IMG/VR virus record: IMGVR_UViG_2563366800_000003
DNA: 19,093 nt
From: a virus
Taxonomy: Duplodnaviria; Heunggongvirae; Uroviricota; Caudoviricetes
Direction: 5' to 3' (one strand)
Shown: positions 746-14,758 of the stretch, piece after piece
Layout of the letters: every line of letters begins with the position of its first letter
How positions within the stretch are numbered: the first letter of the stretch is position 1
The notes under the pieces: generated by a model
Told to the model about the DNA's origin: nothing
What the model saw: the letters and a program-made list of their open reading frames with translations, nothing else
Database searches by the model: none
Made by a program: the position numbers and the translations under genes

Positions 746-1020
746 TCATCTGGGCCAATCCTCGCTCATAACAGGCATTCACTTCAGTCATGGCAGAAAG
801 GTATGCATGCTGGAGAAGTCGTGAAAGAAAAGAAGACTGCTGCGCCGTTTGTCGTCACGTTTATCTTCATTGGCTATGCAAGTCGTAATACAAGGTGGGA
901 CAAAACTGAGACACATAAGGCCTCGCAATGGCTTGCAAGGCTTTACATGTTTTGATGTGGTGGGACGTGTGAGCGCAGTGTTGATGGGGTAATGCTTTGA
1001 ATTAGAAGCGGATTCTTATA

Positions 1021-1066
1021 ATTCGTAATGCGAAGGTCGTAGGTTCGACTCCTATTATCGGCACCA
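1021..1066 (+). other. 46-nt 3' portion of tRNA-Thr(CGU) (thrW-type) without its 5' half; attachment-site core of the downstream integrative element
   Basis: ATTCGTAATGCGAAGGTCGTAGGTTCGACTCCTATTATCGGCACCA matches my recollection of the E. coli thrW 3' end (anticodon CGT, T-arm GGTTCGACTCC, acceptor TATCGGC + CCA). The preceding 30 nt do not form the matching 5' acceptor/D-arm (GCCGATA…), so this is not an intact tRNA gene. Confidence 0.7.
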
Positions 1067-1083
1067 TTCAAACATCTCCCCAA

Positions 1084-1165
1084 GTCTACTAAAGTCTTTC
1101 AAAACCCCTTATAATCCGCGTATTAAAGCCCCGTTCGTCTTTTGACGTCTACTAAAGTCCCTCAA
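1084..1165 (+). repeat. Two direct copies of GTCTACTAAAGTC(Y)(Y)TCAAAA (1084-1102 and 1147-1165) between the att core and int
   Basis: Seen directly in the sequence, 63 bp apart; the position fits accessory-factor or arm-type binding sites of an attP-derived region (inference). Confidence 0.45.
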
Positions 1166-1178
1166 AATCTACGGTCAG

Positions 1179-1231
1179 ATGGGGGTACTTATGGGGGTAT
1201 TTGCTGTTCGGTTTAGTGGAGGTACCCCCAA
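1179..1231. promoter_or_regulatory. Three TGGGGGTA motifs (two direct at 1180-1187 and 1192-1199, one inverted at 1223-1230) immediately upstream of int; candidate arm-type integrase binding sites
   Basis: Seen directly; a near-identical ATGGGGGTACTT(T)TGGGGGTAT block recurs at 17693-17718 near the proposed right end. A GGAGG Shine-Dalgarno (1218-1222) for int lies within this region. Confidence 0.45.
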
Positions 1232-2446
1232 GTGAAACTCAATGCCCGTCAAATAGACACAGCCAAGCCAAAAGAGAAGGCTTACAAGCTGGCCGATGGT
1301 GGCGGTTTGTATCTCTTGGTAAAACCTAATGGAGGTAAATACTGGCGACTTAAATATCGTGTAGCTGGTAAAGAGAAGCTATTGGCACTAGGTGTGTATC
1401 CTGAGGTTACTCTAGCCGATGCTCGGGCAAAACGTGAAGATGCGAAAAGAGGTATCGCTGGTGGTATCGATCCGATGGAAGCGAAACGAGAGGAAAAGAT
1501 TGCCCGGGAAACGCAGTTAAACAACACCTTCAAAGATATTGCCCTTGAGTGGCACAGCAGCAAATTAAAAAAATGGTCTGCTGGTTATGCTTCAGACATC
1601 CTCGAAGCCTTCAACAAAGATGTGTTCCCTTACATTGGCAAAAAACCAATCGCCGAAATCAAACCACTTGAACTTCTGAATGTGCTGCGGCGCATCGAGG
1701 GGCGCGGTGCTACAGAAAAAGCCAAAAAAGTGAGGCAGCGGTGCGGGGAAGTTTTCCGCTATGCAATAGTCACTGGTCGCGCAGAGTATAACCCTGCACC
1801 AGACCTTACTAGCGCGATGCAAGGCCATGAATCTAATCATTACCCTTTCCTTACAGCCAAAGAATTACCTGATTTTTTCAAGGCATTGTCCAGTTACTCA
1901 GGAAGCGCATTGGTTGTTATGGCGGCTCGTCTACTGATTATCACCGGCTTGCGGACTGGCGAACTACGTGGCGCATTATGGGATGAAATTGATTTCAACA
2001 AGGCTATCTGGGAGATACCCGCTTCACGTATGAAAATGCGGCGGCCTCATATTGTGCCATTGTCTGAGCAGGCTCTTTCGCTTATTGGGAAGATTAGAGA
2101 AATAACAGGCAATTACCCTCTTATGTTTCCCGGGCGCAATGATCCAAGGAAAACAATGAGCGAGGCCAGCATAAACCAAGTGTTTAAGCGCATTGGCTAC
2201 GCTGGACGTGTAACTGGTCATGGGTTCCGGCACACTATGAGTACGATTTTGCATGAGCAGGGCTATAACACCGCGTGGATAGAAACGCAGCTCGCTCACG
2301 TTGATAAGAACTCAATTCGTGGCACATACAACCATGCGCAATATCTGGATGGAAGGCGGGAGATGCTTCAATGGTATGCCGACTATATGGATTCTCTCGA
2401 GCATGGCGGAAATGTGGTGCATATGGTGTTTGAAAAACACGCATGA
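1232..2446 (+). CDS. int: P4-family tyrosine integrase (site-specific recombinase, phage integrase family)
   Basis: 404-aa ORF with GTG start 9 nt after GGAGG; N-terminal arm-binding-type region (LNARQIDTAKPKEKAYKLADGGGLYLLVKPNGGKYWRLKYR), catalytic-domain signatures HGFRHT and C-terminal RGTYNHAQYLDGRREMLQWYADYM typical of CP4-57 IntA/P4 Int relatives; sits directly next to a tRNA 3' fragment. Confidence 0.9.
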   Translation: MKLNARQIDTAKPKEKAYKLADGGGLYLLVKPNGGKYWRLKYRVAGKEKLLALGVYPEVTLADARAKREDAKRGIAGGIDPMEAKREEKIARETQLNNTFKDIALEWHSSKLKKWSAGYASDILEAFNKDVFPYIGKKPIAEIKPLELLNVLRRIEGRGATEKAKKVRQRCGEVFRYAIVTGRAEYNPAPDLTSAMQGHESNHYPFLTAKELPDFFKALSSYSGSALVVMAARLLIITGLRTGELRGALWDEIDFNKAIWEIPASRMKMRRPHIVPLSEQALSLIGKIREITGNYPLMFPGRNDPRKTMSEASINQVFKRIGYAGRVTGHGFRHTMSTILHEQGYNTAWIETQLAHVDKNSIRGTYNHAQYLDGRREMLQWYADYMDSLEHGGNVVHMVFEKHA

Positions 2447-2837: not shown

Positions 2838-3041
2838 ATGGCTAATTACAATTCATTAATTCGTCTCTCTGAAGTTCAAAGGCGAACTGGTTATAGCAAA
2901 GCATGGATTTATCGTCTTATTAGTCAGGGGAGGTTCCCTAAACAGGTAAAAATTGGAAGTCGGGCAATTGCTTTTGTTGAGTCTGAAATAGATGAATGGA
3001 TTGAGAAGTGTATATTAGAATCTAGAGACGAGATGGCCTGA
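2838..3041 (+). CDS. alpA: AlpA-family phage transcriptional regulator/excisionase-like DNA-binding protein
   Basis: 67-aa ORF RLSEVQRRTGYSKAWIYRLISQGRFPKQVKIGSRAIAFVESEIDEWI matches the AlpA helix-turn-helix pattern; position directly after int is typical of P4-like/PICI elements. Confidence 0.85.
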   Translation: MANYNSLIRLSEVQRRTGYSKAWIYRLISQGRFPKQVKIGSRAIAFVESEIDEWIEKCILESRDEMA

Positions 3042-4493: not shown

Positions 4494-5554
4494 CCGCCCA
4501 GAAGAAGATATTTTCACTGGCTGGTATGTCGCCAAAATCCAGCAATATGACAGCAAAGTCAGACATTAATACAGCAGATACAAGCAAAGTTTATCATTTT
4601 CTGGTGGTAGGAGCGGATGCCTTAACTATGTCAGAAATTACGGTCGATGGTGTTAGCGTTGAGAAGGTCAGCGGCTATGCCAGAGAATTTCTGGTCGTAG
4701 ATGGCTTTCTCTGCTCGTGTAGTGACTCCACAAAAACCTTCGTCCACGCGCGTGACGTTAACGAAATGAGCGCGATGTACTGTGCTTCTGGTTCTTCCAA
4801 TAGTGAGTTTTCGGAGTCCATAAAAAAGAGCTTGCCGTTATGCGGCAACACGGTTTATGGTTATAAGGCACCTCATAAAACGGGTGCCGGGATTGGCGTC
4901 CTGAAAATTCTGAAGGCGACATATGACGCGCCGAGCGTCTTTTTTTATGTCGTAGGTCTGACTCACCCATTTTTTGGGCGTTGGTGTATAATCCAGCGCC
5001 TTTGTCAATCAATGGTGGCTCAGGCGGGGGCTTCTTCGGAAGCGCCGGTATCCTTCAGAGCCGGTTACGCCAACCCTGTCTGGGCTACCACCAGCGAAAT
5101 TGGCGTTTCCGGTGGTAGCGTAACCTGCTATCTGAAGGAGGCTGCCACATGCTGGCTACTACCCCTACCCAAAAAACGCAATTTATCTGGATTATCGCCG
5201 CAGTTCGCCGCGATTGCCCGACAATTACCGCCAAAATTCATCATATTGCTGCCGAGTCTGAACGCGATGCTCGCCGTTCTCTGGTGCGCGATCACATCTG
5301 CTTTTTTGCTGGTCGTATCCGCATGGAGGTGGCACATGATTAAAACCTACGATGTGCATATGGATCCCCTCGAACGCACAAGCCAGATCATCACACTGAC
5401 AGAAGTGATTAACGACATTCTGGTGAGCAACTCTCCCTCACGAGACGAAAAACTGAAGGCGTTACTCGCGATATTGGACCTCGCCGTTCGTGACGTTCAT
5501 TTCCTGCTGGAAGGTGGACAAATGCCATGCAAAACGGGGGCAACCAATGAATAA
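4487..5554 (+). CDS. Uninterrupted 355-codon ORF, probably composite: plausible N-terminal ~145-aa hypothetical protein and a separate C-terminal small gene (5336-5554, 72 aa, GGAGG RBS) joined by low-quality run-on
   Basis: Good RBS (GGAGG, 4475-4479) before the ATG at 4487; the middle of the frame contains a terminator-like hairpin plus T-run (~4925-4946), a TATAAT-like hexamer (~4985-4990), and a W/C-rich improbable translation; a second gene with a strong RBS occupies another frame at 5149-5343. Confidence 0.35.
5149..5343 (+). CDS. Small hypothetical protein (64 aa)
   Basis: AAGGAGG 8 nt upstream of the ATG at 5149; its stop overlaps the next ATG (ATGATTAA at 5336-5343), indicating translational coupling. 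Confidence 0.45.
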   Translation: MLATTPTQKTQFIWIIAAVRRDCPTITAKIHHIAAESERDARRSLVRDHICFFAGRIRMEVAHD

Positions 5555-9722: not shown

Positions 9723-10040
9723 ATGTGACTGAATTGATGCGCACAACACCTGGCTGGCATCAGAGAGTGTTTTACGAGACTTTCGTAAAATCCTGTGTAC
9801 AAGGGCGTGACGTTTTTGAAAGTAAGCACTACGAAATTTTCGTAGTTCAAAAAACAGCCTTTGAGAAGTTGTTATGCCTGTTCAGCAAACCATCCGCATA
9901 GCTGATCGCGAATCAAATTACCAATGGAGCCAGAAGCAAGGGCAGAACTGGAAAGCGCCTGCCGTGAAGAGTAATGCGACACCATAAATATAGTTTTTAG
10001 AGTCCATAAAAAACCTGTCAAAACCTGACATACAGAACGA

Positions 10041-10167: not shown

Positions 10168-10341
10168 ATGGCTATTTCAGTAAAGCCAGTATTGATAAGT
10201 GAGAAGCAAATGGAAGCGATAAAGAAAATTCAGGAGGAGCAGCGTAAAAAATCAGAGGTAGGAGTTGCGCCAACGATCCACGAAATTGCTCGGGGATTAA
10301 TGGATAAGGCGCTGGCTTACACTTTAACTGGACGTGGGTAA
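10168..10341 (+). CDS. Small hypothetical protein (57 aa), first gene of the cargo operon; possibly a small DNA-binding or adaptor protein
   Basis: Strong RBS (AAGGGGGCG) before the ATG at 10168; [57 protein letters not shown]; below the 60-aa cut-off of the ORF track; its stop lies 4 nt before the next ATG. Confidence 0.5.
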
Positions 10342-10345
10342 ATCA

Positions 10346-11782
10346 ATGGCTACGTGGCAACAGGGTATTAATTCTGGTGGTTTTCTGGCTGGCATCGGTA
10401 CGCAAAATGAGAATGCGCCAAAGGCAAGCGACATTAACGCAACGCTTGGTCTGATCCGCGAAAACAATGAACTGGCTCGCTCAGGTGCAAATAACGTTGG
10501 TCTGACCGCGTTACGTGGTCTGGCTGGAGTTGCTGATATTTATAAGCAGCAGCAACAGCAGGAGCGTAAAGCGGCATTCCAGAAAGGTTATGCAGATGCT
10601 TATGCGTCCGGCGACAGGGAGCAGATGCGTAATCTTATTACAGCATTCCCAGAAGAGTTTGAGGAAGTCCGTAAAGGGATGAGTTATGTCGATGATGCTC
10701 AAAGGGATGATTATGGCAATCTGGCGCTCAAAGCACAGGTAGCCTCATCGCTTGGTCCGGGAGCATTTGGCAGGTTCATGATGGATAATGAGCAGGAGAT
10801 GCGTCGTTTAGGTATCCCTCCAGAAACTATTGCTGAAATGCAGGTTAATGACCCGCAGGGCTTCCAGCATTTCGCAGGTAATCTGGCGTTGTTTTCTCTC
10901 GGTCATGAGAAGTACTTCGATATCAAAGATCGAATGGAGGGTCGGGATATTGAGCGTGGCGAGTTGGCAGAGACGATTCGCAGCAATAAAGCTGGGGAAG
11001 GTTTACAGGCGCAAAGCATTGCTGTTAGCCGTGAAAACTCTCTGCGCACTGCTGGAGGTGCTGTTCCTGCATCTGTTAAAGAATATCAATATTTCAACAG
11101 CCTGTCTCCAGAGCAACAAAAGACATATCTTCGTGTTCGAGGCCGTCCTGCTGCTGGCGGGGAGAATGTTGTGCAACTGGCAGATGGTAGAACGGTAACG
11201 GTTGGTCGGAAGCTTCACGGCGCTGGTGCTAATGCGTTCTACGAAGGAATAGACAACGAGGGCAATATGATTCGCGTCCCCGCAAGTTCTATTGCTGCTC
11301 CGGCTACATCGGCAGCTAATGCGCAGAATTACGAAATGAAGAAAGATCTTGATGCAATTTCTGGCGCATCAATTGACGATCTTGGCTTCATGACAGGTAT
11401 TACAGGTTCTTCAGGTTCTTTTGCTCTTGGTGCAGATATTCGTAGCCGGGCATCTGGTGTTGAGGAGAGGAAACTATACAACGCTGCACAGCGAATCATG
11501 GGCAAAATGCAAAATCAGGGGATTGCGGCAGCCCGAGATATGGGGGCATCTGGCATCAACACCGAAGCAGAGGCCAATAGGTATTTTCAGGGTATGCCAA
11601 AGCCTGATTTCTCAAGCCCTGAAGCACTACAACAATCAATGCGCGACATTCAGCAATATACCGACAATTACAACCAGCAATATAACGTTAATGTTGGTAA
11701 ATCTCAGCGGCAGCAATCTCAACCTGCACAGGTATCACAGCCAGCAGCCAGCAGTAACTTTTCTTCACTATGGGGTGATTAA
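10346..11782 (+). CDS. Hypothetical protein (~478 aa; track frame opens at GTG 10334), low-complexity Gly/Ala/Gln-rich, predicted largely helical, no catalytic motif recognised
   Basis: Long ORF with consistent coding character; stop TAA overlaps the next start (TAATG at 11780-11784); N-terminal Gly-rich segment, Q-rich tail (…[19 protein letters not shown]). Confidence 0.8.
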
Positions 11783-13887
11783 TGGCTAAAGCATGGAAAG
11801 ATGTTATCGCTTCTCCACAGTATCAGGCGTTAGCACCAGAACAAAAAGCGCAGGCTCAGGAGCAATACTTCAATGAAGTCGTGGCCCCGCAAGCCGGAGA
11901 AAGTGTAGAGCAGGCTAAGCAGGCTTTTTATGCTGCCTATCCACTGCCATCAACGAATGAAATAGACCGATCCCAATCAGCAACTCAAAATATTCAACAT
12001 ACATCATCTGATAATTCTCTTGCGTCAGGGTATGCAAAGTTAGCTACTCAGCAAAGAGAGGGGCTTGAGCGTTCAGCAGAACAGGGAGCCAGTCTTGGGG
12101 CTGCGATGCGCGATGCTATAACAGGCGAAAGCCGAATGACTCCAGAGATGGAGAGACTGCAAAATGTCGCCTCTGCCCCAGAATTGAACTCACTAAGCAT
12201 GGATGCCTTAAAGGCTGGATGGTCTCAACTTTTCGGCTCTGACGCGTCTCAGGAAAAGATTCTTCAGGGAATGGGGGCGACATTAAGGCAGGATGAGAAG
12301 GGGAATACTATCGTTTCTCTGCCATCAGGTGATTATGCCCTAAACAAGCCGGGTTTATCACCGCAAGACCTGACTTCGTTTCTTGCTAATGCGTTGGCGT
12401 TTACACCAGCGGGCAGGGCTGGAACGGTGCTTGGTGCCATAGGAAAATCAGCAGCTACAGATTTAGCACTACAGGGAGCCACCAGCCTTGCTGGTGGAGA
12501 AGATATTGATCCGTTACAAACGGTAATTTCTGCTGGCATTGGTGGTATTGGTAAGGGGCTGGAAAATACAGCGAGTGCGGTTTCGAGGGCTGTTCGTGGT
12601 GATATGTCGCCTGAAGCAAAGGCTGCTGTCGACTTTGCATCGGAAAGAAATCTGCCGTTAATGACCAGTGACATGCTGAAAGATAAAACCTTTATGCAGA
12701 GTCAGGCTCAGACATTAGGCGAAAGACTTCCTTTTTTTGGAACCGGTAAGAACCGACTGAATCAACAACAAGCACGAGAAAATTTAGTCAGAACATTTAG
12801 CGATGGTCTGGGGGGAATTTCAGATAAACAGCTTTATGAGTCTGCGACTAAAGGGCAGCAAAAATTCATTGAGGCAGCAGGAAAGCGATATAACCGCATA
12901 ATTGACGCTATGGGGGATACCCCTGTCGATCTCTCAAACACGGTAAAAGCTATCGACAATCAGATTGCCGTGTTAAGCCGACCGGGCAAATCTCAGGATA
13001 GAGCCGCGGTAAAAGTCTTGCAGCAATTTAAAGACGATATCACCAGCGGACCCAATGACCTGCGTCTGGCGAGAGAAAACAGAACTGACCTTCGAAAGCG
13101 GTTCATGAATTCAAACGAGACTGTTGATAAAGACACGCTCCAGAAAGCCAGCGATATTGTCTACAAGGCATATACAGCGGATATGAAAAAAGCAGTATCC
13201 CAAAAACTAGGCTCAGAAGAAGCTACCAATATGTCTAGGGTTGATCGCTCATGGGCTAGATTCAATGACATGATGGGAAGAACGCGCGTTCAAAAGGCAA
13301 TAGCCAGCGGCAAGGCCACGCCTGAGGATGTAACAAAACTCGTTTTTAGCCAAAACCCATCAGAACGTTCTCAGCTTTACAGGCTTCTGGATGACAATGG
13401 TAGGCAAAACGCACGAGCCGCCATAGTTCAGAATGCTGTAGATAAGGCGACTGATCCGTCTGGAAATATCAGTGTTGAGAAGTTTATTAATGCGTTACAC
13501 CGGAACAGGAAGCAATCAGCAACTTTCTTTAAAGGCGTATATGGAAAGGAACTGGACGGCGTTATTAAATACCTCAATGATACAAGACACGCGGCAAAAG
13601 CGAACGTTCAAAACTTAAATGGTCAGCAGCTTTATGGATTGTTAGTTGGTGGTGGCATCATAAACGCAGCAGTATTAGCGGGGATGCTAAAAACGGCTGC
13701 GTTTGTTGTTCCTGCTGCTGGTGTCGTAGGCGGAGCAGCGAAGGCATACGAAAGCCCTGTTATACGAAATGCCTTGTTACGTCTGGCAAATACGCCAAAA
13801 GGTAGCACAGCATATGACAGAGCGATCAGTACGGTCACACAATCGCTCACCAGAGTCGCACAGGCATCACAAAAAGAATCTCAATAA
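11782..13887 (+). CDS. Hypothetical protein (701 aa), helical/low-complexity with a C-terminal Gly/Ala-rich hydrophobic hairpin (residues ~617-653); candidate membrane-inserting protein
   Basis: Translationally coupled to the upstream gene, GGGGTGA RBS; hydrophobic LYGLLVGGGIINAAVLAGMLKTAAFVVPAAGVVGGAA near the C-terminus; no nucleotide-binding or nuclease motif seen. Confidence 0.8.
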   Translation: MAKAWKDVIASPQYQALAPEQKAQAQEQYFNEVVAPQAGESVEQAKQAFYAAYPLPSTNEIDRSQSATQNIQHTSSDNSLASGYAKLATQQREGLERSAEQGASLGAAMRDAITGESRMTPEMERLQNVASAPELNSLSMDALKAGWSQLFGSDASQEKILQGMGATLRQDEKGNTIVSLPSGDYALNKPGLSPQDLTSFLANALAFTPAGRAGTVLGAIGKSAATDLALQGATSLAGGEDIDPLQTVISAGIGGIGKGLENTASAVSRAVRGDMSPEAKAAVDFASERNLPLMTSDMLKDKTFMQSQAQTLGERLPFFGTGKNRLNQQQARENLVRTFSDGLGGISDKQLYESATKGQQKFIEAAGKRYNRIIDAMGDTPVDLSNTVKAIDNQIAVLSRPGKSQDRAAVKVLQQFKDDITSGPNDLRLARENRTDLRKRFMNSNETVDKDTLQKASDIVYKAYTADMKKAVSQKLGSEEATNMSRVDRSWARFNDMMGRTRVQKAIASGKATPEDVTKLVFSQNPSERSQLYRLLDDNGRQNARAAIVQNAVDKATDPSGNISVEKFINALHRNRKQSATFFKGVYGKELDGVIKYLNDTRHAAKANVQNLNGQQLYGLLVGGGIINAAVLAGMLKTAAFVVPAAGVVGGAAKAYESPVIRNALLRLANTPKGSTAYDRAISTVTQSLTRVAQASQKESQ

Positions 13888-14325: not shown

Positions 14326-14443
14326 AGCTTGGGTCGGGATTTCAAATCCGCTCCCAGTTGATGGGGTCGTTACAGTACGCGCATATCCGCTTTATGTGAA
14401 ACAGGAAGATTTTTCTGATATCACTGCCACAGCAAAACACCAA

Positions 14444-14467
14444 TTTCGAGACAAGTACGCGCGCGAG
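14444..14467. repeat. Copy a of the TTTCG(A/G)GACAAGTACG(Y)GCGCG repeat family
   Basis: Seen directly; related copies at 14731-14758 and 16120-16150, shorter CAGTACGCGC/CAGTACGCAC variants at 14374-14384 and 14505-14518. Confidence 0.5.
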
Positions 14468-14730
14468 GGGTATCAGTTGCAAAATTTTTTGCAACTGCGT
14501 CCGACCAGTACGCACACGATGGCGGGGGATACCATGAAACTGTTCTCTACATAAGTCAGAGTGGTGGTGATGTGTTGATTATCGGCGTATATGCGCACAG
14601 GACGCGCTATGACAATGTTTTATGCGGGTACACCAATCACATGTATCTGGTGTGATAAATCGCGTTACATGACATCTCATGTTGTGCTGGTGGTTATCAC
14701 GACGTTCTGAATCTGGCTTTTGTCTGATAT

Positions 14731-14758
14731 TTTGCGACAAGTACGTGCGCGTAGCATC
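14731..14758. repeat. Copy b of the GACAAGTACG(Y)GCGCG(CG)TAGCA repeat family
   Basis: TTTGCGACAAGTACGTGCGCGTAGCATC; shares the upstream TCTGATAT motif with copy a. Confidence 0.5.

Follow-up and report, generated by a model that had tools for sequence, protein, structure and literature searches.

The attachment site of a 16.7-kb P4/KplE1-type element in the thrW region: predicted integrase arm sites over the int promoter and start, and putative AlpA sites next to the core

The viral DNA analysed here (IMG/VR record IMGVR_UViG_2563366800_000003, 19,093 nucleotides, hereafter the window) carries two classes of short repeats between a tRNA-derived core and the integrase gene int, and one of these classes is found again close to the right end. 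An integrative element of 16.7 kb has its attachment site here in two halves, attL at 1050-1231 and attR at 17695-17794. According to our interpretation, which as a whole we regard as likely, the repeats of one class (A sites, TGGGGGTA) are arm-type sites of the integrase that overlap the promoter and the start of int and would allow autoregulation, while those of the other class (B sites, (G/A)TCTAC-type repeats) are sites of the excision factor AlpA. Taken on its own, the assignment of the A sites to the integrase is very probable, and that of the B sites to AlpA is somewhat favoured. The site belongs to the P4/KplE1 type and is ordinary but well preserved, i.e. there is no novel mechanism to be proposed. 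Its parts and the two genes in question are the following, P' being the arm next to int and P the far arm.

1050-1068 (+): left core (attL), TCCTATTATCGGCACCATT; recurs at 17777-17794 minus one nucleotide
1084-1099 (+): B block 1, GTCTAC at 1084-1089 and GTCTTT at 1094-1099, 10 bp apart; putative sites of a recombination directionality factor (RDF), here AlpA; compare TorI sites I1 and I2
1147-1172 (+): B block 2, GTCTAC at 1147, GTCCCT at 1157 and ATCTAC at 1167; putative RDF sites; compare TorI sites I3-I5
1162-1191 (+): predicted int promoter, placed by positional homology; -35-like TCAAAA at 1162-1167, 18-nt spacer, -10-like TACTTA at 1186-1191
1180-1199 (+): A sites P'1 (1180-1187) and P'2 (1192-1199), TGGGGGTA in tandem, 12 bp apart; predicted integrase arm-type sites
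1223-1230 (-): A site P'3, inverted TGGGGGTA between the Shine-Dalgarno sequence GGAGG (1218-1222) and the start codon GTG (1232)
1232-2446 (+): int, tyrosine integrase; Pfam Arm-DNA-bind_3 (1.4e-28), Phage_int_M (1.3e-34) and Phage_integrase (1.1e-26)
2838-3041 (+): alpA, winged-helix protein of the AlpA/Vis/TorI family, candidate RDF; Pfam Phage_AlpA (7.5e-20)
17695-17714 (+): A sites P1 (17695-17702) and P2 (17707-17714), TGGGGGTA in tandem on the P arm, 62 bp before the right core
17715-17776 (+): AT-rich A-tract spacer of 62 bp that separates the P-arm sites from the core; presumably a bend or a region for host factors
17777-17794 (+): right core (attR), TCCTATTATCG-CACCATT; repeat of the left core with one G missing

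Repeats of the two arms

An initial annotation of this DNA had described the two repeat classes between the core and int and a recurrence of the TGGGGGTA pair near the right end. All of these repeats were found where they had been placed, with frequencies above chance as judged from shuffled sequences, and the recurrence lies at 17695-17714. The five matches to TGGGGGTA listed above are all that the window contains, compared to an expected 0.27, and this number was not reached in any of 200 shuffles. The tandem pairs starting at 1180 and 17695 are part of 22-nt repeats with 95% identity. One and the same motif is found on both arms in the layout of P4, where each arm has a tandem of 12-bp spacing and the start of int has an inverted copy, and the AT-rich character of the P-arm spacer is also shared with P4 and with related loci. 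The strict consensus of the host factor IHF (WATCARNNNNTTR) has no match in the P or P' arm, the sole nearby match (17797-17809) being situated outside the element; the A-tract spacer at 17715-17776 may bend the DNA by means other than IHF. A degenerate A-type tandem with 12-bp spacing, AGAGGTATCGCTGGTGGTATC, was also noticed within int itself at 1447-1468 (codons RGIAGGI), and one related locus (L007) has a near-perfect counterpart, AAGGGGTATCGCTGGGGGTATC, at +216.

The B sites are repeats of a different type. GTCTACTAAAGTC is present in exact copies at 1084-1096 and 1147-1159, and with 90% identity these copies can be lengthened to 21 nt (1084-1104 and 1147-1167), at a distance of 63 bp. When up to two mismatches are allowed, three matches are found against 0.21 expected, a number that no shuffle reached. 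The 13-mers resolve into pairs of (G/A)TCTAC-type hexamers that are 10 bp apart; in block 2 the 10-bp phasing is exact and the block abuts the -35 position, and GTCTTT at 1136-1141 is a possible extra copy. The B sites are direct repeats spaced by about one helical turn, and all of them lie on the same arm, after the core and before the predicted int promoter; no repeat of the GTCTAC class is found on the P arm. Such a spacing of direct repeats by one helical turn is typical of RDF sites (PMC7498355). The initial annotation had considered arm-type and host-factor sites as the roles of the repeats. The TGGGGGTA class does fit arm sites, but the GTCTAC class fits the sites of an excision factor of the AlpA/TorI/Vis type and not those of the integrase arm domain or of a host factor, and strict IHF consensus sites are lacking in both arms.

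The integrase encoded next to these repeats possesses an arm-DNA-binding, a core-binding and a catalytic domain. Its N-terminal domain matches the PDB entries 3JU0 (E 6e-28) and 3JTZ (E 4.5e-22), deposited under the titles 'Phage integrase' and 'Integrase' (CP4-like integrase), which presumably are the arm-binding-domain structures of HAI7 and HPI from Szwagierczak 2009. For integrase residues 1-95, a single-sequence AlphaFold model was of low confidence (predicted local distance difference test score 53) and served only for locating strands roughly. Another product of the element is a small winged-helix protein that belongs to the AlpA/Vis/TorI family and shares 38% identity with TorI over 39 amino acids (E 6e-8) and 39% with P4 Vis over 49 amino acids (E 3e-14). 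The geometry of the predicted int promoter is that of KplE1 and P4, with an 18-nt spacer and a -10 element beginning at the TA of P'1, although the hexamers are weak and a consensus scan was empty. The -10-like TACTTA lies between P'1 and P'2 and overlaps with these sites, and the family consensus is TTGAAA for the -35 and TAcATT for the -10 element.

Conservation and covariation among related loci

Motif conservation in related elements had been suggested as a check of the initial annotation. This check was run on 80 loci, that is, on the window and 79 loci whose integrases are 61-98% identical to that of the window (one genome per species), and the motifs withstood it. The tRNA targets of these loci comprise seven different genes. 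No gaps are needed to align the DNA upstream of int, and int starts 163-167 bp past the tRNA end in 48 of the 68 loci that have an upstream tRNA. A 12-bp-spaced tandem octamer at -49 to -54, accompanied by an inverted copy at -7 to -11, is found in 50 of the 80 loci, and a shifted or degenerate tandem in a further 19. The octamer itself comes in a number of variants (TGGGGGTA in 43 loci, TGGGGGCA in 21, GTGTATAG in 5, TTGTATAG in 4, and GGGGGCC or GGGGGCT in 2), and the tandem and inverted copies always match each other within one element. Eight elements have their far end within reach (the window, L001, L012, L023, L030, L031, L035 and L069); here the distal tandem is located 76-82 bp before the attR core, i.e. 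the repeat of the tRNA 3' end, and each element has its own variant at this place, such as GCA in L023 and GTGTATAG in L069. Outside the A sites, the most conserved columns of the P' arm are GTCT, AAGTC.A..AAACCC, ACGTCTACT and T.T..TGAAATCTAC. In our interpretation, the P4/KplE1 design, with arm sites on both arms, 2+3 excision-factor sites, and a promoter and start codon of int that are buried in arm sites, is kept with near base-pair precision across many enterobacterial elements and seven tRNA genes. For annotation purposes, the motif pair provides a practical marker for the far end of such islands.

The position of the A motif is conserved and its specificity covaries with the arm-binding domain. 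Among the 404 columns of the integrase alignment only three, residues 29, 50 and 53, split the GTA and GCA classes of sites perfectly, and all three fall within the arm-binding domain. Integrases of the GTA class have L, L and L/V/I at these positions and those of the GCA class have E/Q, R and F, while the rare motif classes have K or M at residue 50; the integrase of the window, whose sites are of the GTA variant, has L29, L50 and L53. P4 Int, which was not part of the set from which this rule was derived, has E and R at the positions matching 29 and 50 and GCA sites (TGGGGGCA), its residues having been read off a printed sequence with an insertion close to position 50. The GTA/GCA character requires five changes on a tree of residues 100-400, as opposed to one on a tree of residues 1-90, therefore the arm domain and its sites appear to travel together as a module. 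In L014 as compared to L015-L017, the P' arms are near-identical up to the B sites, after which the A sites switch from GTA to GCA along with the N-terminal domain of the integrase. A recombination breakpoint thus seems to separate the B sites from the A sites.

With a slight preference over the contrary, we propose a recognition rule for DUF4102/Arm-DNA-bind_3 domains, according to which residue 50 (L, R, K or M, with 29 and 53) goes with bases 6-8 of the site, and the arm domain and its sites were exchanged as a module at least five times in our sample among integrases that differ in catalytic domain and tRNA target. The variants concerned are the GGGGG-TA, -CA, -CC/-CT and GTATAG types, each of which has its own state of residue 50. 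The rule links three integrase residues to the arm-site variant in a testable manner. If it is true, the arm sites, and hence both ends of P4-like islands and satellites, would be predictable from the integrase sequence alone, and arm specificity could be re-engineered.

The B hexamer roughly follows the type of AlpA and not the class of the A sites. TCTAC is found with AlpA proteins of the RTGYSKAWIY type whatever the A motif, TCAAC goes with the DKWIY/DKWFY type and TCCAC with the KKSWIY type. Many relatives have further copies of the B motif, namely an inverted pair downstream of the int stop codon (+31/+41) and a copy about 31 bp before alpA. These copies may be further operators of the protein that binds the B sites, and their recurrence after int and before alpA fits an element-encoded regulator. 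The inverted pair reads GTAGAC, with a distance of 10 bp, in L002-L013, L027, L029, L033, L046, L067 and L074, and the copy before alpA in many relatives is a single inverted GTAGAC. What the window has instead, at 2470-2495, is GTTTAC (2470) and an inverted ATCTAC (2490-2495). A degenerate third copy of GTCTACTAAAGTC, namely GTTTACTAAAGTA at 2470-2482, falls in the same place; it was not kept as a conserved third copy, since what the relatives have at +31/+41 is the inverted GTAGAC pair.

Proposed mechanism and alternative explanations

It is by homology that we assign proteins to sites and deduce regulatory consequences. The N-terminal Arm-DNA-bind_3 domains of the integrase would bind the five A octamers, the C-terminal domains of the same molecules would bind the core of about 19 bp in the tRNA 3' end, and the arms would fold back onto the core across the AT-rich P-arm spacer to give the recombination complex. 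AlpA would bind cooperatively to the five or six 10-bp-phased B copies, whose two blocks separate the core from the -35 element. As a recombination directionality factor it would bend attL for excision, and it would also modulate the int promoter. Since the P' pair straddles the -10 element and the inverted copy is placed between the ribosome-binding site and GTG, int is probably under negative autoregulation, i.e. integrase bound to the A sites would repress its own promoter. The suggestion of the initial annotation that the repeats are candidate sites of a P4-family recombination complex agrees with the annotation of P4, with the experimentally mapped layout of KplE1 and with the conservation of the motifs.

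There are a number of observations that weigh against this interpretation. The bare hexamer RTCTAC is not enriched over the window as a whole (11 occurrences, 10.4 expected), so that the weight of the B sites lies entirely in their local phased cluster and in their conservation across species. The link between B hexamer and AlpA type comprises few independent switches, one locus (L009) combines TCTAC-type block-2 sites with a divergent AlpA, and at many related loci an alpA gene was not found within reach. A scan of 1000-1300 for sigma-70 and terminator consensus sequences returned nothing, and the hexamers TCAAAA and TACTTA are poor ones. The 1-nt deletion in the attR core leaves the present-day activity of the element unproven. 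Finally, the segment before int can be folded into an RNA hairpin, with -27.7 kcal/mol and z = -2.5 (4 of 200 shuffles fold as well), and this hairpin encloses GGAGG. The direct and inverted copies of TGGGGGTA might accordingly act mainly as RNA, 1192-1199 pairing with 1223-1230 and hiding the Shine-Dalgarno sequence and start of int, which would amount to a translational control that could, for instance, silence read-through from the tRNA. The two copies covary between elements as the halves of a stem would, and int of P4 is reportedly also regulated at the post-transcriptional level. Nevertheless, we consider this explanation unlikely, because the identical tandem of the far arm, which is 16.5 kb distant and not part of any int transcript, covaries as well, and the motif variant follows the N-terminal residues of the integrase. 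Moreover, if the -10 element is between the first two A sites as in KplE1 and P4, the mRNA would start inside the second of them and would have no 5' half of the stem. The hairpin may be an added layer of control rather than an alternative to arm sites.

The other explanations concern the identity of the binding proteins or deny the repeats a function. That the GTCTAC repeats are sites of host factors (IHF, Fis), or an intrinsically bent spacer, is in keeping with their helical phasing, with the general need of such attachment sites for bending proteins and with the requirement of IHF for KplE1 excision in vitro. It becomes quite improbable when one considers that TCTAC and TCAAC variants occur within the same host genera (Escherichia, Shigella, Citrobacter, Enterobacter), that neither arm has a match to the IHF consensus, and that many relatives have the motif again in inverted orientation, both downstream of int (+31/+41) and about 31 bp before alpA, in the manner of a regulator's operators. 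One could also exchange the roles, so that GTCTACTAAAGTC is the arm site of the integrase and TGGGGGTA an operator of another regulator encoded by the element; the GTCTAC repeats contain TAAA, as the arm sites of IntS do, and they are closer to the core. We give this very little credence, as the class has no copy on the P arm, and TCTAC is kept in elements with TGTGTATA or GGGGGCA A sites despite the change in N-domain class; furthermore, the TAAA-containing arm sites of KplE1 (GGGTAAAA) are situated at the A positions, where the annotation of P4 also puts its arm repeats. The decayed surroundings of the element, which is part of a degraded tandem array full of insertion sequences and has a 1-nt deletion in attR, could suggest that the repeats are functionless chance or relic sequences. 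This is hardly credible in view of the shuffle statistics and of the ungapped conservation and covariation over the 80 loci, which represent many genera. The reading that we prefer remains that of integrase arm sites and AlpA sites.

The thrW locus and known counterparts

The 46 nt at 1021-1066 are identical to the 3' part of thrW (tRNA-Thr CGU), from the anticodon loop to CCA. The identity of the fragment is backed by the tRNA-Thr(cgt) 3' ends that ARAGORN found at the related loci L012 and L023. In the window ARAGORN found no complete tRNA, the fragment consisting of the 3' 46 nt only. The core lies in this tRNA 3' end, and each end of the element has a copy of it, that of attR with its 1-nt deletion. 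What had been called the att core does contain the core, as the last 17 nt of the tRNA fragment (1050-1066) fall within it, but the element's own core comprises only about 19 bp. Since 896-1068 shares 98% identity with the attP region of Shigella phage SfIV, the 46-nt piece is, on this similarity, mostly the attR of an upstream SfIV-like prophage remnant.

896-1066 (+): SfIV-like remnant attR, composed of 896-1020 and the 46-nt thrW 3' part at 1021-1066; by similarity to SfIV attP

At thrW the locus takes the form of a tandem array, with the proposed att core as a hybrid junction inside it. In the related genome of E. coli 2 HS-C an intact thrW is found about 9.4 kb upstream, and the DNA between it and int contains a decayed prophage, IS1, an AraC gene and an IS3 fragment. 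The true boundaries and the working parts of a 16.7-kb mobile element are fixed in this crowded hotspot. Compared to the tRNA, the right core of the window (TCCTATTATCG-CACCA) lacks one G, and the same deletion is found in the distal core of a Citrobacter amalonaticus element (L012). As L012 shares the deletion, the missing G is probably a property of the element's own attP core sequence, with the crossover to its right, and not the result of recent decay.

As regards the neighbourhood, positions 1-210 resemble by eye an end of IS1, which is annotated just upstream in the related genome, and 308-760 is a truncated fragment of an IS3-type transposase. To the right of attR, a CbtA-family toxin gene with an adjacent small open reading frame is found at 18174-18853; with this toxin gene to the right of 17794, it is concluded that a further CP4-type island follows. 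The Pfam content of the element is int, alpA, genes with AntA and Ash domains, and then a zinc-ribbon/Toprim/DUF927 primase. Two large cargo genes at 10334-13887 are homologues of P22-type ejection or DNA-transfer proteins (Pfam Inj_translocase; PHROG 917, 770 and 29864), a cargo that seems unusual for a small int-alpA-primase element. Two further repeat families were noticed. A 23-nt direct repeat, ATTTCGAGACAAGTACGCGCGCG, is present in three copies (14443-14465, 14729-14751 and 16119-16141, 87-100% identity) among small minus-strand open reading frames with no family match, and a 22-nt repeat, AGTTTTCGGAGTCCATAAAAAA, is also present in three copies (4806-4827, 9835-9856 and 9992-10013, 77-100% identity), two of which lie just after the primase gene.

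The general features of this attachment site can be compared to those of known systems. In the record of satellite P4 (NC_001609) the label 'attP arm sequence repeat' is attached to a tandem pair on each arm and to an inverted copy on the ATG of int. As in the window, the tandems are octamers with 12-bp spacing, and the inverted copy is at the int start codon, where in P4 it overlaps two alternative starts. Also shared are a core that lies in a tRNA 3' end and is separated from the P-arm pair by an AT-rich spacer of about 55-60 bp, phased repeats (of GTCC type in P4) between the core and a TTGAAA -35 element (the P4 promoter being TTGAAA/CATAAT), and an excisionase of the AlpA family, Vis. The differences are in the details. 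The P4 motif is TGGGGGCA and that of the window TGGGGGTA, in parallel with E and R in P4 Int as opposed to L29 and L50; the integrases are only 42% identical, and the B-type motif is TCCG/GTCC in P4 versus TCTAC. The target of P4 is leuX and not thrW. The promoter Pint of P4 is regulated by Int and by Vis. P4 has an extra arm repeat annotated inside int, in a position unlike that of the 1447-1468 tandem of the window. Footprints of Vis on attP of P4 have been published (PMC2603039).

A similar arrangement is known from KplE1/CPS-53, whose integrase IntS is 49% identical to that of the window and whose sites are experimentally proven, while those of the window are predicted. The arm sites of KplE1 are GGGTAAAA; its attR has the tandem GGGTAAAAtagcGGGTAAAA 78 bp before the core, as in the layout of the window, and its attL has GGGTAAAAA at the mapped -10 element and inverted copies just before the ATG. 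The promoter PintS consists of a -35 TTGACA, an 18-nt spacer and a -10 TAAAAA that is inside the arm site P'1. All P' arm-type sites of KplE1 contain TAAA and P'1 overlaps the -10 element (Panis et al. 2010, PMC2951348), and both IntS and TorI repress PintS (PMC2951348). The five TorI sites in attL (GTTCG, GTCCG, GATCG) are grouped in blocks of two and three, the last one next to the -35 element, and the same arrangement is seen in the window. On the other hand, KplE1 differs in its arm motif (GGGTAAAA), its RDF motif (GTTCG) and its target (argW), TorI is encoded at the far prophage end and not beside int, and the sites of block 1 are 20 bp apart instead of 10.

CP4-57, integrated at ssrA in E. 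coli K-12 (L083, positions 590-660) and namesake of the Pfam AlpA family through its regulatory protein, has the same layout with another motif, AGGCCCA, namely TAGGCCCAttgaTAGGCCCA and an inverted TGGGCCTA before the ATG of intA. GTCCGA-type repeats are found between the end of ssrA and the promoter region, which is again similar to the window, but the N-terminus of IntA is clearly unlike that of our integrase, and a terminator is inserted between the B blocks. Because CP4-57 shows this layout with an unrelated motif, the tandem-plus-inverted design extends to distant P4-like integrases. The attP site of phage lambda, with its arm sites P1, P2 and P'1-3 and its Xis and IHF sites, is different in several respects. 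The arm-binding fold is not the same, the DUF4102 type having one more strand and one more helix (PMC8138268). In lambda, moreover, Xis binds on the P arm, the attachment site does not embed int with its promoter, and the target is not a tRNA gene. Nevertheless, the common principles are apparent, as in lambda too the integrase is heterobivalent and joins arm to core, and phased direct repeats are bound by a small winged-helix protein, which directs excision.

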